DNA of 64,000 bases. Source: Bacteroidales bacterium. Its GTDB lineage: Bacteria > Bacteroidota > Bacteroidia > Bacteroidales > UBA1715. Shown piece after piece: positions 7,247 through 63,684 of the stretch. Each line of letters begins with the position of its first letter. The stretch's first letter is position 1. Position numbers and translations under genes: made by a program. Location: contig JAQICB010000102.1 in NCBI GenBank assembly GCA_027858745.1, positions 14,892 to 78,891 on the forward strand, given 5' to 3'. The notes beneath the pieces were generated by a model. The model saw only the letters and a list, made by a program, of their open reading frames with translations, did not search any database and had not been told where the DNA came from.

Positions 7247-7276
7247 ATAATATAAAATAAAAATCAATATATAGAT

Positions 7277-7825
7277 ATGGAATCTTTTTTTTCTTTAATA
7301 CAATCACGAAGGAGTGCCCGAAAATTTAAGACTGATAAGGTTTCTTCTGAAATGCAAAAACAATTGTTACAAGCAGCTTTGTTGTCTCCCGCTTCGAAAC
7401 GGAGCAATCCATGGGAATTTATTGCAGTAGATGATTTAGAAATGCTTCGCAAATTGTCTGAGTCGAAACCGCACGGAGCGGCTTTTTTAGCGAAAGCTCC
7501 TTTTGCAATTGTGGTTGTTGCCGATCCGGAAAAAAGTGATGTCTGGGTTGAAGATACGTCAATTGCTTCTCTTTATATTCAGTTAGCAGCCGAAGATTTG
7601 GGATTGGGAAGTTGTTGGATACAAATACATAAGCGAGAACATGAATCGGGAATTATGGCTTCGGAGTATGTTAAAAAAATGCTAAACATTCCTTCTCAGT
7701 ATGAGGTTGAGTCTGTAATTGCAATTGGTCACAAAGAAGTTGAGCGTAATGGAGCTGAACTTTCTGATTTATTGTATGAACGTCTGCATACAGGAGAATT
7801 TGGGAAACCATATACTTTTAAATAA
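7277..7825 (+). CDS. Nitroreductase-family protein
   Basis: MESFFSLIQSRRSARKFKTDKV.. has the typical RRS.R.F signature. 182 aa. Confidence 0.8.
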   Translation: MESFFSLIQSRRSARKFKTDKVSSEMQKQLLQAALLSPASKRSNPWEFIAVDDLEMLRKLSESKPHGAAFLAKAPFAIVVVADPEKSDVWVEDTSIASLYIQLAAEDLGLGSCWIQIHKREHESGIMASEYVKKMLNIPSQYEVESVIAIGHKEVERNGAELSDLLYERLHTGEFGKPYTFK

Positions 7826-18367: not shown

Positions 18368-21300
18368 ATGAAATACGGTTATAAATATTGTCTGCTTTTC
18401 GTTGTCATATTTGGTGCTTTGTTTACAAACGGACAGAATATAGATATCATTGACGGAACGATTCAAACAGGATGCAATTTTACTATTTATGATAGTGGTG
18501 GTTCCGGAGGAGTATATAATAATAGTGAGGATTATACTGTAACCATTTGTTCAGGTAGTACAGACTATGTAAAAATTGATTTCGCTTCTTTTATTATAGA
18601 ATCCGGCTATGATAATCTATATATATATGATGGTAACAGTATAGCTGCTCCGGAAGTGCTCGGAAGTCCCTTTTCAGGATCAAGTAGTCCCGGAACAATA
18701 TCTGCTACAGGAACTTGTATAACTATTCGATTTGTAACAGATGGTTCGTATACAAAGACGGGGTTTGAAATCAACACTTCCTGCATTCCTTCACCAACCA
18801 TTTATCCTATGACCGATGGTATGGCTATAATGGATTGTTACGGTATTTTTATGGATCCGCAAGGAGACGGTGCTTATGTGGACTATAATGAAACGCAAAC
18901 CATGACTTTTTGCTCAGGAACAGAAGAGGCACTTCAATTTGATTTTACCACATTCAGCACTAATGAAGCCGGTGATAATCTTGCTATTTATGATGGTAGT
19001 TCTACAGTCGATCCACTGATTGGCACATACAGTGGGAATTTAAGCCCGGGGCTTGTTACCTCAACAGGAACATGCCTTACATTTGAGTGGACAACCAACA
19101 ACAGTCTGGATGGTGCTCTGGGATGGTCTGCAGGTATTTCTTGTGTTGAAATACCTCCAATAAATTTTTCTTGTGCAAATGCTGAACCGCTTCCCTGTGG
19201 AACAAGCAGCCTAGAAGGTAGCACAGTATCTACATTGAATATTGAGCATCAAACCGGCTGCTCATTGTCCAACTATGGTGCATGGTACACCTTTATCGGC
19301 GATGGGGATTATACAACAATATCATTAACCGCAGACTTTGATGCTGAAATGGCTATTGTAACCGGCAGTTGTGGCAGTTTTTCATCGATAGCTTGTGTTG
19401 ACAATGCAGGTTCTTCCGGTATAGAATCTCATTCTTTTATTGCTAATGTTGGTCAAACGTATTATGTCTATATTGCATACTATTCTTCGGGTTCCTCAAT
19501 GACGGGTAATTTTACAATATCAAGATCGTGTACTGATTCCGAAGAATGTTCGTATTGTGGCAGTGCGGTTCAAATAAGTTCTATTCCGTATGCTTACACA
19601 GGAACAACATGTGGAGCTTGTAATAATTATAATAGTGAAAATGCCTGTAATTCATCATATCTTGAAGGAGAAGATTTTGTATTTGAATATACTCCGCTTG
19701 AAAATGAATATGTGGATGTTGATTTGATGGCAGATACTTATTATGTTGGGGTTAATATTACAAAAGATTGTCCGGATGTGGGAACTTGTATTTGGAGTGT
19801 TTCAAGTTCCGGCACTAATGCGATTGGTCAGTCGATACCTTTGTACGGCGGTACAACGTATTATTTCATTGTTTCTACAAATACATCATCTGCTTGTATA
19901 CCAAATTTCACTTTAGACTTGACTATAGCTTCACCACCACCTCCCGGTAAGGATTGTAGTACAAGTATTGCCTTTTGTACAGAAGATAATTATCTTTTCC
20001 CCGCTGCTACTGATGTTGACGGGTATGGCAAGGTTGGTTGCTTAGGGACTACTCCAAACCCTGCTTGGTACTTTATGGAGGTTAGCGAATCCGGTGATTT
20101 AATAATTGATATTACCAGTGGCGATGATGTCGATTTTATTGCGTGGGGACCGTATTCTTCGATTACAAATTATTGTGAAGAAATTTCGATGGAAGACTGT
20201 TCGACTTGTCCTGATAATACGAGTACGACTAATTTTTATCCGTACGGTAAAATCGTTGATTGTAGTTACGATCCGGCTGATAATGAAACAGTACATATTC
20301 TTGGTGCACAAACTGGTGAAATTTATGTTTTGCTTATAACAAATTACTCAAATACAGAAACTAATATTGAGTTTGAACAGACCGGTGGAGACGGAGTTGC
20401 TAATTGTGATATAGTGGCACCTCCTATTAGTAGTAATTCAATTGTATGTGAAGGCGATGATTTGGAGCTTTATGTTACATATACTCAGTCTGGAGCAACT
20501 TATTTTTGGACAGGGCCCAATGGGTGGACATCAACAGATATGAACCCTACGAGACCAAATGCTACTCTGGCAATGTCCGGCACATATTCTATGAATGTGA
20601 CTGTTAGTGGTAATACAACAGCTCCTGTAACAACAGATGTCGTTATTAATTCTTGGATAAGCCCAACATTTAGTGCAGTTGGTCCTTATTCTACGGGAGA
20701 TATTATTCCCGATTTGCCTACAACATCTCTCGAAGGCATTACGGGAAGCTGGTCACCTGCTATTGATAATACAACAACTACGACATATACATTTACCCCG
20801 GATGTCGGACAATGTGCTTCCTCAATAACGCTAACAATTGATGTTGACGCAATCATAACGCCAACATTTAGTGTAGTTGGTTCATATTGTGTGGGCGATG
20901 TTATTCCTGCTTTGCCTACAACATCACTTGAAGGTATTACAGGAACGTGGTCGCCTGCTATTGATAATATAACAACCACAACATACACATTTACCCCGGA
21001 TGCCGGAGAATCTGCATCTACAACAACGCTTACTATTGATGTTGACGCAATCATAACGCCAACATTTAGTGCAGTTGGTCCTTATTCTACGGGAGATATT
21101 ATTCCCGATTTACCTACAACATCTCTCGAAGACATTACGGGAAGCTGGTCACCGGCTATTGATAATACAACAACCACAACATACATATTCACCCCGGATG
21201 TCGGACAATGTGCTTCCTCAACAACGCTTACAATTGCTGTTGGTACAATCATAACGCCAACATTTAATGCAGTTGGTCCTTATTGCGTAGGCGATGTTAT

Positions 21301-23389
21301 TCCTGCTTTGCCTACAACATCACTTGAAGGTATTACAGGAACGTGGTCTCCTGCCATTGATAATACAACAACTACAACATACACATTTACTCCTGATGCC
21401 GGAAAATGTGCTTCCTCAACAACGCTTACAATTGATGTTGACGCAATCATAACGCCAACATTTACCCAATTGGGTCCCTATCGTGTTGGCGATATTCCGG
21501 ATGTTTTACCTGTAACTTCAAATAATGGAGTGAATGGTATATGGACTCCCGTATCAATCAATACCGCAACTGAGGATACAAGAACCTATACTTTTTTGTC
21601 AAGTGCAGGGGGGTGTGTGGCGAATACAACAATGGAGGTAACAGTAACTATGTTTAATTGTCAGTTTGATGCTCCGGAAGTTTTTGGTGTAGAAGAGTGT
21701 AAGGGTAATGACTTGTCAGACATTCTTGCAAATAAACCGATGTCTACTACAGAATCGGTAGATACATGGAAAATTTACGATGAAGATAATAATCCTATTT
21801 TAATAAGCGGAGCAATAACCGATGATAGCTATAGTTTTGCACACGGTGTTGATAATATGACCGTAGGTACAACAAAATTTTATGTGAGTTATATCGCAAC
21901 AGAATCTAGTAGCGGGAACCAGTGTGAGAGTGCAAAAACAGAAGTTTCGGTTGTGGTGAACCAACTTCCGGATATTACGATAACAGCACCAACAACACCA
22001 ATTTGTTTCGATGCGGGCGTTCAGGTCTTTGATAAAACTGTTGATTATGCCTCAAATGGATTAGGAACAGGTTCTTGGGCCGTAGATGGTGCGACACGTG
22101 GTATAAATTCTTCCGGTGAATTTGACCCAACATTTAATGGCGAGACTACAGATACGCATGAGATATCATATAGTTATGTTGATGGTAAAGGCTGTACAGA
22201 TATTGCACGGCAAGATGTGATGGTGTACTTTACGCCGGCACCACAAGTAGATTCTTTTGTTATTTGTAAAAACGAAAATATTGAGCTCATGTATGGAGAC
22301 GGAACTCCCCAGATGATTTGGATTAGCCACGATGCATATCCATCTGTGAGTGAGGGTAATGTATATGAGTTTGAAAATGAAAAGGATTTAGATGTTGGAA
22401 TATATCAATTTACGGTATATGATTATGATTCTATAATCGGCTGTAAAAGTCCAGAGGTTCCGGTTAGTTTAAGATTGGTTCCACCGTCTGTTCCAGAAAT
22501 ATTGGGAGCAAAAAAAGTCTGTGAAAATCAGATTGAGGAGAGATATGCTACAAAATATAATGGAGGAAGCATATATGATTGGAAGGTAAGTGCTGATAAG
22601 GTAAGTTATGTTAAGGATGATGCAAGCAAAAATGTGCTCTATGTTGATTGGGGTGTGCCTGGATATGATACTCTGATGGTAATGGAGCAAACTATTGATG
22701 GCTGTGTTGGATATGATACAATAGTTGTTGAAACAGCACCGTATCCAATCCCATCGTTTGACTGGTCATTACCGGGAGCTTCTAATATTGTGTTATATAC
22801 AAATCAAACAATTCAAGATTCTATATGGAATTATAATTCATCTGGCTTGCAAAATAATAAAGAGATTCCGTATGATTTGTATTGGGATTTTGGTGCCAAT
22901 CGCAGAAATCCGGATAGTACTGAGACGTTAGTTAGATATAAAGATGTAAATAAACCTTTAGAGGTAGAACGATATTTATATGGGTATTCCAATCCCGTAT
23001 TACGAGCCGTAAATAGTTATGGATGTGAAAGTAGTTATTCGGAAAAAATATTTATTGATTTATGTGCAAATTTATATGTGCCAAATGCATTTTCACCAAT
23101 GAATCCAGCACAAGGAGTACGCTATTTTCAACCGAAAGGATTTAACATTTATACAATGGAAATATGGGTGTATGACCTGTGGGGAAATCTAGTATGGTAT
23201 TCGAATGAGGTAGACGACGAAGGTGATTTTATGGGACGGTGGGATGGAAGATACAAGGGAAAAGTATTGAAATCAGATACCTATATTTGGAAAATTGAAG
23301 CTGTGTTTAAAGATGGTCAAGACTGGAAAGGTATTCCTAATGGGAGAGGTGGATTTGACAAAATTGGTCCGGTTATCTTGTTGCGATAG
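18368..23389 (+). CDS. Giant secreted adhesin-like protein with CUB-like modules, tandem Ig-like repeats and a T9SS type B (gliding motility-associated) C-terminal domain
   Basis: 1673 aa. Two CUB-like modules (..YDNLYIYDGNS.., ..GDNLAIYDGSS..). Four-plus tandem 66-aa repeats. The C-terminus LYVPNAFSP..GRWDGRYKGK..YIWKIEA..ILLR fits the type B sorting domain. Confidence 0.85.
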   Translation: MKYGYKYCLLFVVIFGALFTNGQNIDIIDGTIQTGCNFTIYDSGGSGGVYNNSEDYTVTICSGSTDYVKIDFASFIIESGYDNLYIYDGNSIAAPEVLGSPFSGSSSPGTISATGTCITIRFVTDGSYTKTGFEINTSCIPSPTIYPMTDGMAIMDCYGIFMDPQGDGAYVDYNETQTMTFCSGTEEALQFDFTTFSTNEAGDNLAIYDGSSTVDPLIGTYSGNLSPGLVTSTGTCLTFEWTTNNSLDGALGWSAGISCVEIPPINFSCANAEPLPCGTSSLEGSTVSTLNIEHQTGCSLSNYGAWYTFIGDGDYTTISLTADFDAEMAIVTGSCGSFSSIACVDNAGSSGIESHSFIANVGQTYYVYIAYYSSGSSMTGNFTISRSCTDSEECSYCGSAVQISSIPYAYTGTTCGACNNYNSENACNSSYLEGEDFVFEYTPLENEYVDVDLMADTYYVGVNITKDCPDVGTCIWSVSSSGTNAIGQSIPLYGGTTYYFIVSTNTSSACIPNFTLDLTIASPPPPGKDCSTSIAFCTEDNYLFPAATDVDGYGKVGCLGTTPNPAWYFMEVSESGDLIIDITSGDDVDFIAWGPYSSITNYCEEISMEDCSTCPDNTSTTNFYPYGKIVDCSYDPADNETVHILGAQTGEIYVLLITNYSNTETNIEFEQTGGDGVANCDIVAPPISSNSIVCEGDDLELYVTYTQSGATYFWTGPNGWTSTDMNPTRPNATLAMSGTYSMNVTVSGNTTAPVTTDVVINSWISPTFSAVGPYSTGDIIPDLPTTSLEGITGSWSPAIDNTTTTTYTFTPDVGQCASSITLTIDVDAIITPTFSVVGSYCVGDVIPALPTTSLEGITGTWSPAIDNITTTTYTFTPDAGESASTTTLTIDVDAIITPTFSAVGPYSTGDIIPDLPTTSLEDITGSWSPAIDNTTTTTYIFTPDVGQCASSTTLTIAVGTIITPTFNAVGPYCVGDVIPALPTTSLEGITGTWSPAIDNTTTTTYTFTPDAGKCASSTTLTIDVDAIITPTFTQLGPYRVGDIPDVLPVTSNNGVNGIWTPVSINTATEDTRTYTFLSSAGGCVANTTMEVTVTMFNCQFDAPEVFGVEECKGNDLSDILANKPMSTTESVDTWKIYDEDNNPILISGAITDDSYSFAHGVDNMTVGTTKFYVSYIATESSSGNQCESAKTEVSVVVNQLPDITITAPTTPICFDAGVQVFDKTVDYASNGLGTGSWAVDGATRGINSSGEFDPTFNGETTDTHEISYSYVDGKGCTDIARQDVMVYFTPAPQVDSFVICKNENIELMYGDGTPQMIWISHDAYPSVSEGNVYEFENEKDLDVGIYQFTVYDYDSIIGCKSPEVPVSLRLVPPSVPEILGAKKVCENQIEERYATKYNGGSIYDWKVSADKVSYVKDDASKNVLYVDWGVPGYDTLMVMEQTIDGCVGYDTIVVETAPYPIPSFDWSLPGASNIVLYTNQTIQDSIWNYNSSGLQNNKEIPYDLYWDFGANRRNPDSTETLVRYKDVNKPLEVERYLYGYSNPVLRAVNSYGCESSYSEKIFIDLCANLYVPNAFSPMNPAQGVRYFQPKGFNIYTMEIWVYDLWGNLVWYSNEVDDEGDFMGRWDGRYKGKVLKSDTYIWKIEAVFKDGQDWKGIPNGRGGFDKIGPVILLR
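20663..21454 (+). repeat. Four in-frame 198-bp tandem repeats in an A-B-A'-B' pattern, plus a diverged fifth unit to about 21650
   Basis: CCAACATTTA recurs at 20663, 20861, 21059, 21257 and 21455, an exact 198-bp period. I count about 13 mismatches in 198 between units 1 and 3. Units 2 and 4 are similarly close. Confidence 0.9.
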
Positions 23390-23449: not shown

Positions 23450-25900
23450 TTAAAAATTTACTATTCGAATAATATCTGCAAATACTCCGGCTGCAGTTAC
23501 TTCTGCACCTGCACCGGGGCCGATAACGATTAAGGGTTGTGTGCGGTATCGTGCCGTTGTAAATGAAATAATGTTATCACTTCCTGTTATATTATAAAAA
23601 GGATGTGTTGGGTCTATCGCTTTTATTTCAGTTTTTGCTTTACCGTTTTCGTATGTTGCAATGTATTTTAATCGTTTGTTATTTGAAGATGCTTCTTTTA
23701 TTTTCTTTTCATATACAGAATTGTCAAATTTTTCGAGAGTTTCCCATAGTTCATCTACTGTTTTTGTTTTTTGACTTTCGGGACTTAAGCAATTTTCAAT
23801 CTGAATATCATCAAGATTGAATTCACATCCAATTTCACGAGAAAGAATTAATATTTTTCTCGCAACGTCCAATCCTGAAAGATCTAATTTTGGATCAGGT
23901 TCGGTAAATCCTTTATCACGAGCTTCTTTGACCACAGATGCAAAATCATGCGATTCGTTACAATTACTGAAAATGTAGTTTAATGAACCGGACAGGATAG
24001 CTTCAATTTTGAGAATTTCATCACCGCTTTTAATTAAATCTTTGAGTGTGTTTATTACGGGCAATCCTGCTCCTACATTGGTTTCGTAATAAAAACGAGC
24101 GCCTGTTTCAGCTGCAATTTTATGAATGTTTTCGTATCGTTTATAATCGCTCGCATTTGCAATTTTATTTGGTGTAACAATTGAAACACTTTTTTCTAAA
24201 AGTTCTTCATATTTTGAAGCAACATCGTAACTTCCGGTATTGTCAACAAATACACTGTTTCGTAAGTTGAGTTCTTTTATTGTGTTTACAAAAATATCTA
24301 AATCAGGTTTTGCTCCTTGTGTAGTCATAATTTCTGACCAATTTGAAATATCCAAGCCGTCTTCGTCAATTATGTACCCATCTATATTTGAGATGCCGAT
24401 AACTTTAACATCAATATTACTTTTTGCAATTAATGTGGTATGTTGAGCTGCAATTTGGTTTATTAACTCATTACCAATTACGCCTGTTCCAACAATAAAC
24501 ACGTTAAGTGTTTGGTCGTTCGATAAGAAAAATGCTTCGTGAAGTGCATTAAGAGCTTTGTTTGTGTTTGTGTTGCAAACAACTACAGAAATGTTTAATT
24601 CGCTTGCTCCTTGTGCAATTGCATGAACATTTATACCATTTAGACCCAAAGCATTAAAAAATCTTCCCGATACGCCGGGTATATTTTTCATATTTTCACC
24701 AACTGCTGCAATTACCGATAAATTATCTTTTATCCGAATAGTTTCTATTAACTTTGTTTCGAGTTCTCCTTCAAATTCGTCTTCTAATAATTTTTTTGCA
24801 TTGTGTGCTTCTTGAGGAGAAACAGCAAAGGTAATTGAGTGTTCTGAAGACCCTTGCGTAATAAGTATAACATTTATATTTCCTTTAGCAATAGCTTTAA
24901 ACAATCGCATTGAAATACCTGCTTCGCCAATCATTCCACTTCCTTGTACGGTAATTAAACTTACATCGTCAATAGATGAAATTCCCTGAACTCGGTGTTC
25001 CGGATTTTGATTGGTGTTTGAAATATATGTTCCCGGAGCTGTTGGATTAAAGGTGTTTTTTATAATTACCGGAATATTTTCTGCCATGGCAGGGATAACT
25101 GTTCTTGGTTCAAGTACTTTTGCTCCAAAATGAGACAGTTCCATTGCTTCGGCATAGGTTACTTGTGCCAGTGGATATGCTTTTTTTACTTTTCTCGGAT
25201 CGGCAGTCATCATACCGTCAACATCGGTCCATATTTCGAGTATTTCTGCTTTGAGTGCTTGTGCGAAAACTGCTGCTGAATAATCAGACCCGCCTCTTCC
25301 TAGTGTTATTGTTTCATTGTCGGCTGTACTTGCAATAAATCCGGTAACAATATATGTTGTAGATCCATCTCCAATAGCTTTTCGAATATTTTTTTGCGTA
25401 ACATCAAAATTAATTTTTGCTGCCCCAAAGGTTTTGTCTGTTTTTATTACTTCTTGTGCATCAAGATAATCGGCTTTTATTTGTTTTTCTTGTAAAGCTT
25501 GTGCTATAATGAATGCTGATAACCGTTCGCCGTAACTTGAAATAAGATCGAGAGACCGCGGAGATAATTCTCTAATCAGATACAATCCGTGAAGAATGTT
25601 GTGTAAGTTTTTTATTAAATCATCTACGTATTCAAGACTTTTTGATTTTCGTTCTCCACTCAATAAGGTTTGTATAACGTTTTGATGAATTGTCGAAATT
25701 TCTGTTATCGTTTCTTTATATGAAATGTTCGATTCTGCAGCTAAATTCCCTGCTTCTATTAATTTATTTGTAATGCCGCCAAATGCCGAAACAACAACTG
25801 CAATAGTATCATCTTGAAGTTTTTCCGAAATTATAGAAATTGTTTTTGAAATGTTTACTGCATTTTGAACTGATGTGCCACCGAATTTTAAAATTTTCAT
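23450..25900 (-). CDS. thrA: Bifunctional aspartate kinase / homoserine dehydrogenase I
   Basis: N-terminal aspartokinase (MKILKFGGTSV), ACT region and a C-terminal homoserine dehydrogenase Rossmann motif (FIVGTGVIGNE). 816 aa. Confidence 0.93.
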   Translation of the reverse strand: MKILKFGGTSVQNAVNISKTISIISEKLQDDTIAVVVSAFGGITNKLIEAGNLAAESNISYKETITEISTIHQNVIQTLLSGERKSKSLEYVDDLIKNLHNILHGLYLIRELSPRSLDLISSYGERLSAFIIAQALQEKQIKADYLDAQEVIKTDKTFGAAKINFDVTQKNIRKAIGDGSTTYIVTGFIASTADNETITLGRGGSDYSAAVFAQALKAEILEIWTDVDGMMTADPRKVKKAYPLAQVTYAEAMELSHFGAKVLEPRTVIPAMAENIPVIIKNTFNPTAPGTYISNTNQNPEHRVQGISSIDDVSLITVQGSGMIGEAGISMRLFKAIAKGNINVILITQGSSEHSITFAVSPQEAHNAKKLLEDEFEGELETKLIETIRIKDNLSVIAAVGENMKNIPGVSGRFFNALGLNGINVHAIAQGASELNISVVVCNTNTNKALNALHEAFFLSNDQTLNVFIVGTGVIGNELINQIAAQHTTLIAKSNIDVKVIGISNIDGYIIDEDGLDISNWSEIMTTQGAKPDLDIFVNTIKELNLRNSVFVDNTGSYDVASKYEELLEKSVSIVTPNKIANASDYKRYENIHKIAAETGARFYYETNVGAGLPVINTLKDLIKSGDEILKIEAILSGSLNYIFSNCNESHDFASVVKEARDKGFTEPDPKLDLSGLDVARKILILSREIGCEFNLDDIQIENCLSPESQKTKTVDELWETLEKFDNSVYEKKIKEASSNNKRLKYIATYENGKAKTEIKAIDPTHPFYNITGSDNIISFTTARYRTQPLIVIGPGAGAEVTAAGVFADIIRIVNF

Positions 25901-26012
25901 ATGTATATTTTATTGATTTTTATTTGTTATACCCGCCTAATTGGGGGGCTTGTGAAACTGCCATGAGATAATTGTTTAAGTTTTTCTAAAATTTTTATCA
26001 TGGATGTTTCAT
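25901..26012 (-). promoter_or_regulatory. Conserved structured leader motif, copy A (5' of thrA)
   Basis: Stem 1: 25961-25971 pairs with 25995-26003. Stem 2: CCCGCC 25932-25937 / TAATT loop / GGGGGG 25943-25948. Homologous to 29166-29276 and 57427-57535, with compensatory substitutions. Confidence 0.5.
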
Positions 26013-26106
26013 TATTTTTTTATTTATGTTCTGTTTATATAATTATTTTCAGATGCGGTAAAATTAATACAAGGCTTTATTATATCAAAATAAAACAAAT
26101 CAAATC

Positions 26107-28418: not shown

Positions 28419-29165
28419 TTATTTTTTATTTTTGTCTTTAATAAACTGTTCCAAAGCCATTGTCATTGAAGGTGCTTTTGAATTTGGTGCAGGAATGTCT
28501 AAACGTAATCCTGCATCTTTCACAGCTTTAGCTGTTGTTGTGCCAAATGCTCCAATATACTTGTTTTCTTGTTTGAAATCGGGGAAATTTTGTTTTAATG
28601 ACGCAATTCCAGATGGACTGAAAAACACTAAAACATCATAATCAATATCTTTTAAATCAGATAAATCGCTACTTATTGTTTTGTATAAAATTGCTTTAGT
28701 ATAGGTAAGTTTTGCGGCATTTAATTTCTCCGGTATTTCTTGTTTGTGAATATCAGAAAGGGGAATAAGAAATTTTTCGTTAGAATGTTTTTTGAGAATA
28801 TCTACTAAGTTGTCAAATTTGCCATTTGCAGTAAATATTTTACGCTTTCTGTACACTATATATTTTTGAATATAAAAAGCGGTAGCTTCCGAAATGCAAT
28901 AATATTTCATAGTGTCAGGAACGGTTAATCGAAGTTCTTTGCTGATTCTGAAAAAATGATCGATTGCCGTTCGGCTTGTTAAAATAATGGCAGTATGTTC
29001 TAAAATGTTTATTTTTTGGTTTCGAAATTCTCGAGCCGGTATGCCTTCAACATGTATAAACGGACGAAAATCTATTTGTAAATTATTCTTCTTTGCTAGG
29101 TCAAAGTAAGGTGATTTTTCTGTCGCAGGTTTGGGTTGAGATACTAGAATTTTTTTGATTTTCAT
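28419..29165 (-). CDS. hemD: Uroporphyrinogen-III synthase (HemD) family protein
   Basis: MKIKKILVSQPKPATEKSPYFDLAKKNNLQIDFRPFI.. is typical of the Bacteroidetes HemD-like family. Conserved DUF4271-hemD-rnpA neighbourhood. Confidence 0.8.
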   Translation of the reverse strand: MKIKKILVSQPKPATEKSPYFDLAKKNNLQIDFRPFIHVEGIPAREFRNQKINILEHTAIILTSRTAIDHFFRISKELRLTVPDTMKYYCISEATAFYIQKYIVYRKRKIFTANGKFDNLVDILKKHSNEKFLIPLSDIHKQEIPEKLNAAKLTYTKAILYKTISSDLSDLKDIDYDVLVFFSPSGIASLKQNFPDFKQENKYIGAFGTTTAKAVKDAGLRLDIPAPNSKAPSMTMALEQFIKDKNKK

Positions 29166-29276
29166 AGGTTTATATTAAGTGATTTTCAATAGTCATACTC
29201 GCCTAATTGGGGAGGTATGTGTAATATCCATAAGATAATTCAAGTGTATTTAATAATTATTTTTATGGATGATTCA
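29166..29276 (-). promoter_or_regulatory. Conserved structured leader motif, copy B (intercistronic, 5' of the hemD-like gene)
   Basis: Stem 1: 29227-29239 pairs with 29254-29267. Stem 2: CTCGCC 29197-29202 / TAATT / GGGGAG 29208-29213. Same block order as copies A and C. Confidence 0.5.
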
Positions 29277-29301
29277 TAGCTTATTTTTGTTATGTACGTT
29301 T

Positions 29302-36660: not shown

Positions 36661-36956
36661 TAACCTGAGTTTGACGTAATTTTTCGAGTTCAGATTTCTG
36701 CTGAGCTCGTTTTTTGTCCTCGGTTGATATAAAAAGCTGTTTATCAAGGCAAATTATTGAATAATATCTCGTTATTATTCAATAATTTAACGCAGAAAAA
36801 CTGTTTTTTTATGCAAAGCATACTTTTTTCGCTTATAAACAGCAATCTTCAGCTCAAAAATAATTTAAAATAACCCGTTATTATTTCATTCTTTTTGATT
36901 GAATCTCACTATTTATAAGCGTTCTGAATCTAAAAAATTATATCGAACTCAGGTTA
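36661..36956 (+). mobile_element. MITE-like repeat, full copy 1 (296 bp) with ~33-bp imperfect terminal inverted repeats (TIRs)
   Basis: Left end TAACCTGAGTTTGACGTAATTTTTCGAGTTCAG. Right end CTGAATCTAAAAAATTATATCGAACTCAGGTTA. No ORF. Several internal hairpins, including a perfect 16-bp stem at 36751-36788. About 85-90% similar to 63262-63550 by eye. Confidence 0.65.
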
Positions 36957-37422
36957 TTAAGGCAACGGCGTATGCAGAAATCCCCTCTTCTCGCCCAACA
37001 AATCCCAATGATTCGGTTGTTGTTGCTTTTACAGAAATATTCTGAATATCTATATCAAGATCTTCTGCTATGTTCTGTTGCATAAATGGAATGTATGGTA
37101 AGAGTTTGGGTTTTTGTAAACAAACAGTTGAATCAATGTTTCCAATTGTATAATTGTTCTCTGCAAGAATTTTTTTTGTATGTTGTAATAATTTACGGCT
37201 ATCAATATTTTTGTAGCTCATGTTTGAGTCCGGAAAATGAAATCCAATATCTCGTAAAGCTGCGGCACCAAGTAGTGCATCGCAAATAGCATGAATGAGA
37301 ACATCTCCGTCTGAATGTGCAACCATTCCTTTTGAATGCTCTATTGTCACACCTCCTAAAATAAAAGGGATGTTTGTAGCTAATGCATGCACATCATAAC
37401 CATGACCGATTCGTATATTCAT
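36949..37422 (-). CDS. ispF: 2-C-methyl-D-erythritol 2,4-cyclodiphosphate synthase
   Basis: MNIRIGHGYDVHAL..AHSDGDVLIHAICDALLGA.. are the IspF signatures. 157 aa. Confidence 0.93.
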   Translation of the reverse strand: MNIRIGHGYDVHALATNIPFILGGVTIEHSKGMVAHSDGDVLIHAICDALLGAAALRDIGFHFPDSNMSYKNIDSRKLLQHTKKILAENNYTIGNIDSTVCLQKPKLLPYIPFMQQNIAEDLDIDIQNISVKATTTESLGFVGREEGISAYAVALIT

Positions 37423-46141: not shown

Positions 46142-46231
46142 TAACGTGATTTCGATGCAATTATGCTTTACATCAATTCGTCTACTTCGAACAAGATTTG
46201 GAGCTTTAAAAATCACCTCGAAATCAGGTTA
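46142..46231 (+). mobile_element. Mini MITE-like element (90 bp) of the same TIR family, filling the gap between convergent murF and GT2 genes
   Basis: Left TAACGTGATTTCGA. The reverse complement of the right end is TAACCTGATTTCGA (13/14 match). The right end TTAAAAATCACCTCGAAATCAGGTTA resembles the right ends of copies 1 and 2. Confidence 0.45.
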
Positions 46232-47239
46232 ATACAATTTTTTCTTTCTACAAATAAATGCTTGTATGATAATACTTTTTGAATAAACCTCAGGATGATT
46301 TGATACCTTTCGGTTTTGTTCTAATTCTATCCTTTTTTGTTTGAGTGTAGGGATTGCTTTTGTGAAATCACGGTGTGCTGATATAATAGCGTGTGCATTT
46401 TTAAAATCTAATTTTGCCACAAACGAAAGATAGGCAATTATATCGAGAGTGCGTCTTATGAATAATGTTGTACGTAATTTTTCGTGAGTAAGGTTTTTAT
46501 AGAGTAAAAAGAGGTTGTTTCGAAAATTTAAATATGTTTTAAATGGATTTTCTTTTGGTAATGTTCCACCACCTATATGGTAAATAGTTGAGGAGGGGAT
46601 GTATTGTATGGAATAACCTCTGTTTTTTAATCTCCAACAGACATCTATTTCTTCCATATGTGCGAAGAAATCTTCGTCAAAACCATGTATTTCTTTAAAC
46701 GCTTTACTGCGAATGCACATAGCGGCACCGCTTGCCCAAAAAATGTTTGTTTGACTTTCATACTGTCCCATATCTTTTTCTCTATGATTGAATAGTCTAC
46801 CATGACAAAAGGGGTAGCCAAATTTGTCTATAAAGCCTCCGGCTGCACCTGCATATTCGAAATACTCTTTTTCATAATACGATTTAATTTTTGGCATACA
46901 TGCTGCAATTGTAGAGTCGTTTTTGAGTGCTTTGGTAAGCGGTTTTGTCCAGTTTTCGGTAACCTCAATATCTGAATTTAAAAGAATATAAAATTCAGCT
47001 TCTATGTTTTCTAAGCCTCTATTGTATCCACCGGCAAATCCGTAATTTTTATTAAGTTGTATAATAGGAATATGAGGATATGTTTCGTTTATATATGAAA
47101 TGCTCGAGTCTGTAGATGAATTGTCGATTATGTATACGGCAGTATTTTTATCTTCAGTTTTTTCAATAATATTTTTGAGAAATTTTTGAAGAAACGAAAG
47201 TCCATTCCAATTTAATATTACAACTGCGGTTTCAATCAT
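46229..47239 (-). CDS. Family 2 glycosyltransferase
   Basis: MIETAVVILNWNG.. and ..LLNSDIEV.. are GT2 (rhamnosyltransferase-like) signatures. 336 aa. Confidence 0.85.
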   Translation of the reverse strand: MIETAVVILNWNGLSFLQKFLKNIIEKTEDKNTAVYIIDNSSTDSSISYINETYPHIPIIQLNKNYGFAGGYNRGLENIEAEFYILLNSDIEVTENWTKPLTKALKNDSTIAACMPKIKSYYEKEYFEYAGAAGGFIDKFGYPFCHGRLFNHREKDMGQYESQTNIFWASGAAMCIRSKAFKEIHGFDEDFFAHMEEIDVCWRLKNRGYSIQYIPSSTIYHIGGGTLPKENPFKTYLNFRNNLFLLYKNLTHEKLRTTLFIRRTLDIIAYLSFVAKLDFKNAHAIISAHRDFTKAIPTLKQKRIELEQNRKVSNHPEVYSKSIIIQAFICRKKKLY

Positions 47240-54990: not shown

Positions 54991-57420
54991 ATGTGGACAA
55001 AATTAGCAGGGTTTATTTTACGATACCGAACTGTTTTGTTAATAACAGTTTGTGTTATAACACTCGGTATGTTATATCAAGCGAAAGATGTGCATCTTTC
55101 TTATGAATACGCATCATTACTTCCGGAAAAAGATAGTGCTTTTATTGAATATGAAAAGTTTAAAGAGCATTTTGGAGAAGATGCTAATATTATGTTTATC
55201 GCCATTAAAGATAAAAATTTCTTTGAACTCGATAAATTTAATTGTTTCATGGATTTGTCTGATTCGCTATCTAAAATTGAAGGGATTGAGGGCGTTTTTT
55301 CGGTAGCCAATGCTTTTCGGCTCAAAGGTTCACGTTTAACAAAGTTTTTTGAGGAGAAACCTCAATCACAGTATGAGTTAGATTCTATTTCGTCTGCTTT
55401 GTTACAACAAGAATTGTATAAAGGGTTTTTGTTTAATGACACCTCTCATGTTTATATGACGGCTTTGACAATTAATAAGCCTCTATTAGATAGTCCGGCA
55501 CGAGAACAATTGCTCGACTCTATAATTTCTATGTATGATGAATATACTGCTTCAAATAATCAAGAGGTATTTTATTCCGGCTTACCATATATTAGAACTA
55601 AAACATCTTTGAAAATTCAAGGTGAACTGATGTTGTTTGTGATTTTGGCCGCCTTAATATGTTCTCTGATTTTATATATGTTTTTCCGCTCGATCAAAAT
55701 AGTGTTTTTTGCAATGTTAATTGTTGCGTTTGGTGTCGTGTGGGTTATGGGCTGGATGGGCATATTTAATTACGATATTACCATACTGAATGCTTTATTG
55801 CCACCATTGATAATTGTTATTGGTGTTCCCAATAGTGTGTTTTTTTTGAATAAATATCATCATGAGTATGTCTTGCATGGGAATAAAATCAAGGCTCTTC
55901 AGCGGGTAATACGTAAAATTGGTAATGCTACCTTTTTAACGAATCTAACAACAGCTTCCGGTTTCGCAACTTTTATTATTACAGAAAGTAGAATTCTTCA
56001 AGAATTTGGACTTGTTGCTTTTTTAGGTATTTTGAGTGTTTTTGTTTTGTCGCTTTTGCTTATTCCAATTGTATTTAGCTATTTGGATCCACCAAATAAA
56101 AAACAAGTGCGGCATTTAGATAATAAATTTTTTCAGCAAATAATTAAATTATTAACGAAAACGGTGTTGAATTATCGTCCGTTTGTGTATGTGGGGTTTT
56201 TTATTTTATTTGCCGTGGGTATTTGGGGAGTTACCAAAATGGAAAGTACCGGATATATGGTAGACGATTTGCCTCATAATGACCCAATCCTGACAAACCT
56301 GAAATTCATTGAACGTGAGTTTAATGGAGCTTTGCCACTAGAGATATTAGTGCATTCAGATTCAAAAATTAATGTCCTGCAAAATAGAAGTTTTTTACTT
56401 AAAATGGAAAGACTTTCTGATTCGCTTAAAAAATATCCTGAAATATCTAAACCATTATCTATTTTAGAATTAATCAAATTTTCGTGGCAAGCACATAATG
56501 GAGGCGACCCTGATTATTATACCCTACACAACAGTATTGATTTTGGCTTTCAAAACAAAATGAACAGATTTGTGCGTTCGCAAAATAACAAGATGCAATA
56601 TTCTATAGTAGATAGCACAAATACAAGTTTTCGTGTGAAATGTAATGTGAAGGATGTGGGAACAGAACGAATGGAATTTTTAACGCAAGAATTACAAACC
56701 GATTTAGATTCAATTTTTGTTAATGAAAAATATTCAACAACAGTTACAGGTTCAAGTATTGTCTTTTTTAAAGGAACAAAATATTTGATTCGAAATTTAT
56801 TTATTAGTCTCTTTTTAGCTATAATTATTATTGCGGTGTTTATGGCGTGGATGTTTCGTTCGAAACGAATGGTCGTCGTTGCATTGTTACCTAATATTTT
56901 GCCACTTATTTTAACGGCCGCTTTAATGGGATTTTTTAATATTCCTATAAAACCGTCTACAATTCTTGTATTTAGTATTGCATTTGGTATTTCGGTTGAT
57001 GATACTATACACTTTTTGGCGAAATATAGACAAGAACTCAGAATTACAAATTGGAATATTGGAAAATCTGTTGTGCTTGCATTAAAGGAAACGGGAACAA
57101 GTATGATTTATACTTCAATTATTTTGTTTTTTGGTTTTGGAATTTTTATTGCTTCTCAATTTGGTGGAACAGAGGCCTTGGGTTCCTTAGTTGCAATAAC
57201 TCTATTAATAGCAATGCTTTCTAATCTAATAGTATTGCCGAGTTTATTGCTTACGCTCGAAAAGCAGATTTCTAATCAATCGTTTAAGGAACCTTTATTA
57301 CATATTTACAATGAAGAAGATGATATTGAGATAGATGATTTGAAAATTATTTCTCAAAATGAAGATGATGATGATGACGAAACCACCATGCAAAATAATT
57401 CACATGAGAATGATAAATAA
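54991..57420 (+). CDS. RND-superfamily / MMPL-type transporter (sterol-sensing-domain-like, HpnN-like architecture)
   Basis: 809 aa with two repeats of TM1, large loop and a 5-TM bundle. Acidic C-terminal tail. Confidence 0.8.
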   Translation: MWTKLAGFILRYRTVLLITVCVITLGMLYQAKDVHLSYEYASLLPEKDSAFIEYEKFKEHFGEDANIMFIAIKDKNFFELDKFNCFMDLSDSLSKIEGIEGVFSVANAFRLKGSRLTKFFEEKPQSQYELDSISSALLQQELYKGFLFNDTSHVYMTALTINKPLLDSPAREQLLDSIISMYDEYTASNNQEVFYSGLPYIRTKTSLKIQGELMLFVILAALICSLILYMFFRSIKIVFFAMLIVAFGVVWVMGWMGIFNYDITILNALLPPLIIVIGVPNSVFFLNKYHHEYVLHGNKIKALQRVIRKIGNATFLTNLTTASGFATFIITESRILQEFGLVAFLGILSVFVLSLLLIPIVFSYLDPPNKKQVRHLDNKFFQQIIKLLTKTVLNYRPFVYVGFFILFAVGIWGVTKMESTGYMVDDLPHNDPILTNLKFIEREFNGALPLEILVHSDSKINVLQNRSFLLKMERLSDSLKKYPEISKPLSILELIKFSWQAHNGGDPDYYTLHNSIDFGFQNKMNRFVRSQNNKMQYSIVDSTNTSFRVKCNVKDVGTERMEFLTQELQTDLDSIFVNEKYSTTVTGSSIVFFKGTKYLIRNLFISLFLAIIIIAVFMAWMFRSKRMVVVALLPNILPLILTAALMGFFNIPIKPSTILVFSIAFGISVDDTIHFLAKYRQELRITNWNIGKSVVLALKETGTSMIYTSIILFFGFGIFIASQFGGTEALGSLVAITLLIAMLSNLIVLPSLLLTLEKQISNQSFKEPLLHIYNEEDDIEIDDLKIISQNEDDDDDETTMQNNSHENDK

Positions 57421-57426
57421 TCAATT

Positions 57427-57535
57427 ATGAAACTATCCATTATAAAAATCAGTAATATATATTGGGTTATGTCTGAATGTTATACGTGTCTGCCGATTGA
57501 GGTGAGTATGACAGATAAAAGTCAAAATTAAACAT
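57427..57535 (+). promoter_or_regulatory. Conserved structured leader motif, copy C (intercistronic, 5' of the epimerase gene)
   Basis: ATGAAACTATCCAT.. Stem 1: 57437-57444 / 57458-57465. Stem 2: CTGCC 57490-57494 / GGTGAG 57501-57506. GTATGAC, then 26 nt, then ATG. Aligns block-for-block with copies A and B. Confidence 0.45.
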
Positions 57536-58483
57536 ATGAAAACAAAAATATTAGTAACGGGAGGAGCAGGATTTATTGGGAGTGCACTTGTTGATAGGTT
57601 GTTGCAAAATCCTAATTATTGTGTTGTTGTAGCCGATGATCTTTCTACTGGTAATAGACAAAAACTACCAAGCGAACAAAGTGCTTGTTTTAAATTTGTA
57701 CATTGCGATGTAAATGACTATCAAAGCATTGCGGCGGTTATGCATTCAAATTCATTCGACTATGTGTTTCATTATGCAGCTCTTGTGGGTGTGTTGCGTA
57801 CACAAGCTCATCCTTTAAAGGTACTTCAGGATATTGATGGTTTTAGGCATATTTGTAGTTTATCTAAGAATACCGGAGTGAAGCGGGTCTTTTTTGCATC
57901 TTCATCTGAAATTTATGGTGAACCATTCGAAATACCACAACATGTTCATACTACGCCATTGAATTCGCGGGTTCCGTATGCAATTGTAAAAAATGTAGGT
58001 GAAGCGTATTTAAAATCCTATTATCAAGAATATGGATTGGATTATACCATTTTTCGCTTTTTTAATACATATGGTCCAAAACAAAGTGTTGATTTCGTGA
58101 TGAGCAAGTTTATTTCGAAGGCTTTGAGAAATGAAGATATTCATATATATGGTGACGGAACGCAAACGCGAACTTTTTGTTATATTGAAGATAATATTGA
58201 GGCATGTGTGAATGCTTTTGAGAAAAATCTTATGATAAATGATATTGTTAATATTGGTGGAAATACTGAAATTACAATAGAAGAATTAGCACAAATAATT
58301 ATTGATAAAACAAAATCTTCTTCAAAAATTATTTTTATTGACCCTCTTAAAGATGGTGATATGACGCGTCGTTGTCCCGATAATACTCGAATGCGTGAAA
58401 TTCTTCTCAATCGTGAGCTGATATCTCTCGAAGATGGAATTGAAAAATTATTGAAAACGGGATTATTTGATTACTCAGAATGA
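57536..58483 (+). CDS. NAD-dependent epimerase/dehydratase (UDP-glucuronate decarboxylase-like SDR)
   Basis: MKTKILVTGGAGFIGS Rossmann motif. YxxxK (YAIVK). 315 aa. Confidence 0.88.
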   Translation: MKTKILVTGGAGFIGSALVDRLLQNPNYCVVVADDLSTGNRQKLPSEQSACFKFVHCDVNDYQSIAAVMHSNSFDYVFHYAALVGVLRTQAHPLKVLQDIDGFRHICSLSKNTGVKRVFFASSSEIYGEPFEIPQHVHTTPLNSRVPYAIVKNVGEAYLKSYYQEYGLDYTIFRFFNTYGPKQSVDFVMSKFISKALRNEDIHIYGDGTQTRTFCYIEDNIEACVNAFEKNLMINDIVNIGGNTEITIEELAQIIIDKTKSSSKIIFIDPLKDGDMTRRCPDNTRMREILLNRELISLEDGIEKLLKTGLFDYSE

Positions 58484-63261: not shown

Positions 63262-63550
63262 TTAAATTTTTCGAGTTCAGATTAGCTTCGCTGAGCTCGT
63301 CCTTTGTCCTCGGTTGATATAAAAAGCTGTTTATAAAAGCAAATTATTGAATAATAGCGACTTATTATGAAATAATTTAGCGCAGAAAAACTGTTTTTTT
63401 TATGCAAGCATACTTTTTCCGATGATTTAAGGGGCTAATACATCAGTTCAGAAATAATGTAAAATAAACCCTTATTATTTCATTTTTTTTGATTGAACCT
63501 CACTATTTATAAGCGTTCTGAACCTAAAAAATCATATTGAACTCAGGTTA
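63262..63550 (+). mobile_element. MITE-like repeat, copy 2 (left TIR tip missing)
   Basis: Collinear with 36676-36956 (..TTTTTCGAGTTCAGATT..CTGAGCTCG..CGGTTGATATAAAAAGCTGTTTAT..CACTATTTATAAGCGTTCTGAA..). Right end AACTCAGGTTA at 63540-63550. Confidence 0.6.
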
Positions 63551-63684
63551 ATATTATCGAGTACCTTAAGTACTTCAATTTCGAAGGTTTAATTATTTTA
63601 GATATTCAATCAATTCTTAATTACGTATAATTACGTAATTATAATTTTTTTTCTCCTTTCATTTTAGCTTTCAATAATAATATG

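Follow-up and report, generated by a model that had tools for sequence, protein, structure and literature searches.

A structured motif that stands directly 5' of the start codons of three functionally unrelated genes raises the question of whether it controls these genes or has arrived in front of them by other means. The three copies lie in a 64-kb stretch of contig JAQICB010000102.1 from an uncultured Bacteroidales bacterium of a salt spring (the window, by which we mean the whole stretch analysed), where a first-pass annotation had read them as a selected leader RNA. We conclude, with a probability of about 0.75, that the motif belongs to mobile DNA and is not a gene switch; the element is small (~90 nt), does not code for protein and is non-autonomous. 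There were at least three insertions at different dates, in the order B, C, A (copies as named below), always in the orientation of the downstream gene and at similar host sites 16-20 nt 5' of the start codon. A short direct repeat of the target was left behind (9 bp, AAATAAAAA, at copy A; 6 bp, AAATAA, at copy C). As far as seen, the element is confined to a genus-level clade of uncultured Marinilabiliales-like Bacteroidales, and we treat this distribution as provisional.

The positions originally given for the copies are correct: A at 25901-26012 (minus strand), B at 29166-29276 (minus strand) and C at 57427-57535 (plus strand). Each is located directly before a start codon and has co-directional genes on both sides. 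An S41 protease gene precedes A and thrA follows it; for B the two are a DUF4271 and a HemD-like gene (both pairs on the minus strand), and for C they are genes for an MMPL transporter and an NAD-dependent epimerase (plus strand). The conserved unit extends from ATGAA(A/T)C to GTATRAC, with the 5' end ATGAAAC-ATCCAT and the 3' end GGCGRGTATRAC, and the recurrence of block order and spacing is borne out by ATCCAT-to-GTATRAC distances of 78, 79 and 80 nt. Within the window, a degenerate 20-nt core pattern matches only copies A, B and C (0.01 matches expected by chance). A covariance model built from the three gives 107-123 bits on them and 17 bits on the next best site with filters off, and no further match to either element end was found.

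Empty sites in related genomes

Related loci were reached via protein homologues and the contigs that carry them, and are labelled L058-L089. The close relatives were taken from 90% clusters and include two NCBI assemblies that are identical in this region (L072, L073) and loci from other metagenomes (L074-L076). These are 91-97% identical to the window at the nucleotide level. The HemD-like proteins of relatives have identities of 91%, 84% and 82%, and the relatives' contigs retain the gene order DUF4271-HemD-rnpA-(yidD)-S41-thrA.

Copy A is missing in L072, L073, L074, L075, L058 and L061-L063, and the gap between the S41 gene and thrA is 231 nt in the window vs. 107 and 87 nt in relatives. 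Aligned to L074, the window is identical at 176 of 180 positions and has a single 100-nt gap, for which the 10 co-optimal placements correspond to a 9-bp duplication. Relatives read ...CATAAATAAAAATCAATAAAATATACATATG at this site; the window reads ...CATAAATAAAAA, then the insert (AATAATGAAAC...GGCGGGTATAAC), then AAATAAAAA and TCAATAAAATATACATATG. By this comparison, the element at A is 91 nt long (25926-26016, minus strand). It is the youngest of the three and was found only in the window's own strain or species. On either side are the left (26017-26025) and right (25917-25925) duplications, AAATAAAAA being present twice in the window and once in the relatives. The remaining sequence before thrA (25901-25916, TCAATAAAATATACAT) is the gene's native leader and not part of the element, as it is identical in L072-L075, all of which lack the insert.

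Copy C is missing in L068, L069 and L071. The first of these is ~91% identical to the window over 10 kb and has one 98-nt gap at C, with 17 nt between the MMPL stop codon and the epimerase ATG vs. 115 nt in the window. The gap contains a 92-nt element of intermediate age (57421-57512, plus strand; TCAATTATGAAAC ... GGTGAGTATGAC). The left duplication, AAATAA (57415-57420), overlaps the MMPL stop codon, and the right one reads AGATAA in the window (57513-57518); L068 has one AAATAA. Following this is the native epimerase leader (57519-57535, AAGTCAAAATTAAACAT), which corresponds base for base to the L068 spacer, AATTGAAAAGTAAACGT. An orthologous, decayed copy C is found in L086-L089, with the same left junction (TAA-TCAATT-ATGAAA) and, as in L088, perfect AAATAA on both sides. 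In A and C, the "22 A-rich nt" originally counted as part of the motif are therefore outside the repeated unit, and the A-rich 16-17 nt before the ATG are the native leader of the gene, as identified in the relatives.

Copy B is common to the window, L072/L073 and L074-L076, and is missing in L058, L059 and L061-L063. The DUF4271-to-HemD gap is 136 nt in the window and in L072-L076, and 22, 15 and 3 nt in L058, L059 and L061, respectively. From these intergenic gaps we identified B as the oldest copy (~89 nt, 29192-29280, minus strand; GCTATGAATC ... GGCGAGTATGAC), with uncertain boundaries. When L058 is aligned with one gap, the insert comes out at 115 nt and has CTATGAA at either end; a decayed AAATAA/TATTGA is an alternative duplication. 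The 26 nt between GTATGAC of copy B and the HemD ATG (29166-29191) resemble the native thrA leader, and are either native or were brought in with the element.

Occupied and empty sites together fit three separate insertions, made while one genus-level clade was splitting, with nested ages (B, then C, then A). This pattern bears directly on the proposal that the motif acts in the 5' leader as a cis-regulatory structured RNA (or cruciform DNA) under selection and controls translation, processing or stability of the downstream gene, perhaps with a four-codon mini-open reading frame (mini-ORF). Such a leader should be present at the orthologous site in relatives. Sites without it were found for A, B and C, and it is missing before the same genes in the nearest relatives. 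Since A, C and B were inserted at different times, the original contrast between a selected structure and a recent duplication does not stand either.

Divergence after insertion

The core of copy B differs at 14-18 of 89 positions among three lineages (0.16-0.20), and four-fold sites of hemD and thrA differ by 0.19-0.24; the 24 nt to the left of B have 4-6 differences. Between the window and L088, 26 of 83 positions differ in the core of copy C (0.31), the same value as for four-fold sites of the epimerase gene (0.31). Structure has been lost as well. For copy B of L072 and of L074, the fold no longer contains stem 1 (described below; z = -1.2 and -1.0, vs. -2.7 in the window), CCAT/ATGG having changed to CGAT/ATGA and CAAT/ATGA. 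Copy C of L088 has lost the 5' arm of stem 1 through a 15-nt deletion, and also the inner CC...GG hairpin of stem 2. Judged by these substitution patterns, orthologous copies evolve neutrally and decay after insertion. Structure kept by purifying selection or covariation among orthologues, as expected of a leader RNA, was not seen in these comparisons.

The conserved part is the host's own leader, which covers the last 27-31 nt ahead of the ATG. At the HemD-like gene, these 31 nt are free of differences in three lineages (vs. ~20% neutral divergence), and the native tail at C differs at 4 of 27 positions between the window and L088. In Bacteroidota, initiation does not involve Shine-Dalgarno pairing, and requires an unstructured region and specific upstream nucleotides (PMC6847099). 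Conservation of these leaders is in line with this mode of initiation.

Target sites and junctions

All three copies are oriented like the downstream gene. The GC skew is positive throughout the window, while A and B are on the minus strand and C is on the plus strand; thus, orientation follows the gene or target and not the replication fork. The replication-strand bias typical of IS200/IS605-type elements was not found, although with three copies only this is weak evidence.

The targets before insertion were observed in L074 (for A) and L068 (for C), and reconstructed for B. Their common sequence is about (C/G)A(T/A)AAATAA^AAA(T)CA, or ...ATAAATAA^AAATCA... The likeness scores are 35 (A vs. 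B) and 28 (A vs. C), compared with a null maximum of 26 over 903 other gene-leader pairs in the window. The target motif is not enriched in the window (41 matches vs. 34 expected). Insertion points are 16-17 nt upstream of the ATG for both A and C; that of B is either ~20 nt upstream or the ATG itself. The direct repeats are a perfect 9 bp at A and 6 bp at C (5/6 in the window, 6/6 in L088), with 7 bp (CTATGAA) possible at B. AAATAA closes the left flank of all three copies, and A(A/G)ATAA may likewise be taken as the end of the insert.

Two other placements were considered. Insertion at the start codon with duplication of ATGAA(A) was rejected for A and C, where closer relatives show a native tail and place ATGAAAC within the element, and is possible for B. 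A target duplication of ~40 nt at C was also rejected: the empty L068 site does significantly resemble the C tail (32 vs. 14.2 +/- 2.7), mostly through right-flank orthology.

The similarity of the targets could also be the cause of the copying. If so, gene conversion or illegitimate recombination between similar leaders would have pasted a donor copy with its similar flanks into another AAATAAAAATCA-type leader, and no dedicated transposase would be involved. Both flanks of A and reconstructed B are alike over ~31 nt (the pair that scores 35 against the null maximum of 26), and the left flank at C, GAGTACGAT or GAGAATGAT, resembles the element 3' end, GAGTATGAC. Terminal inverted repeats are lacking, and B seems to have brought along a 24-nt piece of foreign, thrA-like leader, joined at the CTATGAA microhomology. 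On a second contig of the source metagenome, with the same depth, 35 of 38 nt of TATAAC+AAATAAAAATCAATAAAATATACATATGAAAA occur before a different gene. However, flank homologies of 9-30 nt are short for RecA-dependent exchange, and the clean 9-bp duplication at A is a classic mark of staggered cleavage. Homology-driven copying would explain neither the origin of the first copy nor the compensatory retention of hairpins in paralogues. We consider this route unlikely.

The gene on the second contig begins MKNLLFIVLSIF, and the 35 matching nt in front of it are those of the right junction of A. A recurrent A-rich leader (about AAATAAAAATCAAT...ATA..ATG) was also identified at 25901-25925 (thrA) and at 7253-7276 (before the gene starting at 7277), with related forms at 29166-29191 (HemD-like gene) and 57513-57535 (epimerase gene). 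This leader may by itself be a signal for translation initiation or regulation that these genes share.

Folding, stems and mini-ORF

Stems 1 and 2 fold in copies A and B as first described. Stem 1 of A is a foldback of two 24-nt arms and an AT-rich loop (25953-26011, minus strand), present in the minimum-free-energy fold, with an inverted repeat (25953-25976 / 25988-26011) that is 75% complementary. Stem 2 of A (GCCC-C-CC AAUUA GG-C-GGGU) was located in the fold at 25931-25949 (minus strand). The two compensatory pairs reported previously are real (G-C in A and A-U in B for stem 1; C-G in A and U-A in B for stem 2), so paralogous copies do retain pairing via double changes, but covariation from three sequences is without statistical weight. 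The AAUUA loop and the C-C mismatch, described as invariant, are shared by A and B only; C has a GAUUGA loop, and a G-U pair and bulge. The z-scores of the folds are -4.2 for A, -2.7 for B and 0.0 for C, the last being no better than shuffled sequence, and stem 1 of C is weak (4+4 bp around a bulge). Inverted repeats are internal only: the stem-1 arms are 24 nt in A and 8-9 nt in B, and there are none in C. Nothing pairs the two element ends in any of the three copies, which thus lack terminal inverted repeats.

The mini-ORF encodes MKHP in A, MNHP in B, 34 amino acids in C and MKRQ in L074, and has no ATG in L072 (which reads ATA). We rejected it as a functional leader peptide, as the product is not conserved among copies and relatives.

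Some variation was noted in and around the copies. Sites 26000 and 26030, in or next to A, differ in a co-occurring strain of a second saline-spring sample, and the change at 26000 (A>T on the plus strand) disrupts one pair of stem 1. The 5' end of copy C has a near tandem repeat (57421-57450; ATCAATTATGAAA / ATCCATTATAAAA), of which the L086-L089 orthologue has one unit only. This difference in sequence indicates a slippage-type deletion or duplication within element C.

Transcription and the leader RNA hypothesis

A promoter-like block upstream of thrA (26057-26090, minus strand; TTTTGATATAATAAAGCCTTGTATTAATTTTACC) is almost unchanged between the window and L058 and L061, at 70-80% nucleotide identity, and the surrounding spacer diverges. 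This block is probably the thrA promoter (TTTG ... TAATTTTA), and may be read as the TTTG / TAnnTTT(G) of Bacteroidota promoters. Copy A is located downstream of this sole conserved promoter-like block of thrA, and copy B is inside the DUF4271-HemD operon. Co-transcription with the downstream gene, as part of the 5' untranslated region (UTR), is therefore probable, as initially suggested. Metatranscriptome contigs from the same study cover parts of hemD and thrA, which are thus expressed, and the elements are outside this coverage. Inspection by eye revealed no TAnnTTTG/TTTG pair inside the element and no T-run after stem 2. A sigma-54 spacing (TGGCA-N-GC) was also sought by eye inside the element; A misses it by one, and B and C lack it.

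Several observations would be expected if the motif were a regulatory leader. It has a fixed position just 5' of start codons and is always in the sense orientation, compensatory pairs exist between A and B, copy A folds strongly (z = -4.2), and start-codon-proximal structure is known to tune initiation in Bacteroidota (PMC6847099). Every copy retains the outer part of stem 2, and in L072 the changes within this stem produce G-U pairs in the sense strand. Nevertheless, in addition to the empty sites described above, the core diverges neutrally, stem 1 and the mini-ORF are lost in orthologues, copy C barely folds, and the downstream genes belong to unrelated pathways. The motif corresponds to no Rfam family, in agreement with the original annotation: the whole window has no match at gathering thresholds, and copy A with its flanks gives only snoRNA and rRNA noise at E values up to 10. 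The claim of a selected leader RNA is thus not upheld, given the absence of the motif from orthologous sites in the nearest relatives, and the neutral divergence of shared copies, which lose stem 1 and the start codon of the mini-ORF. Position excepted, the motif fails the leader RNA tests that we applied to orthologous presence, structural conservation, and gene function or curated family. As its primary nature, a leader RNA is already largely refuted, and we consider it very improbable.

Neighboring genes

The genes downstream of the copies were assigned by Pfam domains. The aspartokinase / homoserine dehydrogenase gene thrA follows A (23450-25900, minus strand; AA_kinase, ACT and Homoserine_dh), the HemD-like gene follows B (28419-29165, minus strand; HEM4), and an NAD-dependent epimerase/dehydratase gene follows C (57536-58483, plus strand; Epimerase). 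As previously stated, no common pathway connects them.

Synteny ends directly downstream of thrA (L074 11220-13181 vs. window 18368-23389). At this position, L074 has a gene for a 653-aa acetyltransferase/ATP-grasp (RimK-like) protein, and the window's strain has large opposite-strand genes without Pfam domains. One of these, a 1673-aa ORF (18368-23389), contains four tandem 198-nt units (20657-21550) that are 79-92% identical, and encodes a repeat-domain protein.

Comparison with known mobile elements and distribution

With three repeated, non-coding paralogues of 89-92 nt and empty sites in relatives, the element has features of a MITE, or miniature inverted-repeat transposable element. It fails the defining test for MITEs because it has no terminal inverted repeats. 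Functionally, it most resembles MITE-type repeats that are co-transcribed with genes, of which Correia is the best studied (PMC10969869). The Correia (CREE, Neisseria), ERIC, RUP and BOX repeats are likewise small (about 100-150 bp), non-coding, dispersed and located mostly just 5' of genes. Correia-type repeats are also co-transcribed, form mRNA hairpins and are variably present between strains (PMC10969869). Unlike the element, Correia has 26-bp terminal inverted repeats, a TA duplication, both orientations and >100 copies, and carries promoters together with sites for IHF and RNase III. The element has one orientation, one kind of A-rich target and a 6-9 bp duplication, and inside it no promoter consensus was seen.

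The palindrome-associated elements derived from IS200/IS605 (PATEs) and the REP/RAYT system (PMC2817692), all substrates of HUH tyrosine transposases, share with the element the lack of terminal inverted repeats, hairpins near the ends, pairing kept over sequence, and oriented insertion beside a short conserved sequence (here AAATAA). However, the left and right hairpins of IS608-type elements are near-identical, whereas the two hairpins here differ in sequence, length and loop. A clean duplication such as that at A is unexpected for the IS200/IS605 type, unless the element's end mimics the target. In the present case, oriented insertion 3' of AAATAA is indistinguishable from a 6-9 bp duplication.

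The MITE239/BrickBuilt elements of Porphyromonas gingivalis (PMC4596501) are in the same phylum, and are also non-autonomous intergenic insertions at gene ends. They differ in their clear terminal inverted repeats, which match those of known insertion-sequence families, larger size (about 120-300 bp and more) and many near-identical copies. The window contains two copies of an inverted-repeat MITE family (36700-36959 and 63290-63553, 86-90% identical), which has no sequence in common with the element; a short relative of the end of this MITE was identified at 46201-46234.

It could be argued that the element is itself a classical MITE, derived from a DDE insertion sequence with a 9-bp duplication, and that its inverted ends are too short or degenerate to see. 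It is small and non-coding, its presence varies among relatives, the 9-bp duplication at A is perfect, and stem 1 of A is a 59-nt foldback whose 24-nt inverted arms start at the element 5' end. On the other hand, no inverted repeat joins the two ends in any copy, the three copies share one orientation relative to similar targets, and the length of the duplication appears to vary (9, ~6, and 7 or none). A classical MITE thus seems hardly probable.

Compared with riboswitches, attenuators and ribosomal-protein leaders, the element is similar in its 5' leader location, sense orientation, two hairpins and, in two copies, upstream mini-ORF. It differs from them in its empty orthologous sites, lack of functional coherence, neutral decay and lack of an Rfam match.

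Other candidates were rejected by eye. The ends of the element (ATGAAAC ... GTATRAC) are not complementary, as would be expected for an integron attC site (RYYYAAC ... GTTRRRY), and no inverted arms surround AAATAA, as in an Xer dif-like 11-6-11 module. Similarity of the junctions to an IS10 end did not hold. TTATGAAAC is partly similar to a XerD arm.

The wider distribution was evaluated by scanning 185,579 species genomes, 241 million metagenome records and IMG/VR for the pattern ATCCAT-gap-ATT-GGYGRGTATRAC and a variant. The 42 genome-contig, 15 metagenome and 7 viral matches are each single, in unrelated taxa and without the stems, and are attributed to chance. None of the viral and Bacteroidota genome-contig loci tested with the covariance model matches it. 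BLAST of A and B against plasmids and phages in distant mode found AT-rich chance matches only. As the pattern is too strict for decayed orthologues and the source genome is not among the collections, restriction to the clade is provisional.

How the element may move

We infer that insertion spares the last ~16 nt of the A-rich, Shine-Dalgarno-less translation leader, and that it is tolerated because these nucleotides remain intact. The element would then be transcribed together with the gene as additional 5' UTR or intercistronic RNA. Mobilisation would occur in trans, by an enzyme encoded elsewhere, for which the two hairpins may be the substrate. If this enzyme needs the hairpins, pairing would be kept among independently inserted copies and lost in resident copies. 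A site-specific or hairpin-recognising enzyme (tyrosine/serine recombinase or HUH type) seems likelier than a classical DDE transposase because there are no terminal inverted repeats, only one orientation and only one type of site.

Some findings weigh against a mobile element. The basis is three paralogous copies and their orthologues, and no autonomous partner was found. Source-metagenome contigs searched at 80% likeness yielded no further copies, only the loci themselves and one 38-nt partial match, but this negative is weak because the mapping missed a perfect contig when given a 156-nt stretch (57405-57560) and placed it when given the enclosing 1.2 kb. The two hairpins are unlike each other, and the spacing of 4-7 nt between the duplication and ATGAAAC varies more than a precise recombinase would lead one to expect. 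B has ambiguous boundaries: an insert of 115 nt, with CTATGAA repeated at the start codon, would not fit a duplication of fixed length and, from the aligned sequence, would have carried 24 nt of thrA-like leader. The window's copy B folds well despite being the oldest insertion, and no B or C copy has lost the outer helix of stem 2 (CAUAC/GUAUG type). All three stem-2 changes in L072 yield G-U in the sense strand. Such wobble-giving transitions would arise by chance about 1 time in 8, and are weak evidence, but some effect or constraint at the RNA level may exist.

A more far-reaching version of the mobile-element explanation is that this is a new kind of mobile DNA, without inverted repeats, that homes in one orientation to the A-rich ribosome-loading leader 16-20 nt 5' of start codons. 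Homing would be guided by sequence or homology, via a recombinase, an HUH enzyme, or even an RNA intermediate whose 3' junction is precise and whose 5' junction is ragged. Such an element would deliver a decoy start codon and hairpins, and could act as a portable module that retunes translation in a phylum without Shine-Dalgarno use. We view this as quite doubtful.

Implications

With this analysis, a misleading candidate for a new class of riboswitch-like RNA is set aside. The analysis also provides a worked example in which compensatory changes among paralogues, combined with neutral decay of orthologues, point to a structure that serves mobility and not control of the host gene. The element is probably a young, lineage-restricted, non-autonomous insert of unusual type whose landing sites are translation leaders, and it showed repeated activity while a genus-level clade was splitting. 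If homing close to start codons holds genome-wide, the mechanism of target selection would be an undescribed one, and the insertions would constitute a natural experiment on how much extra structure is tolerated by the Bacteroidota translation leader.

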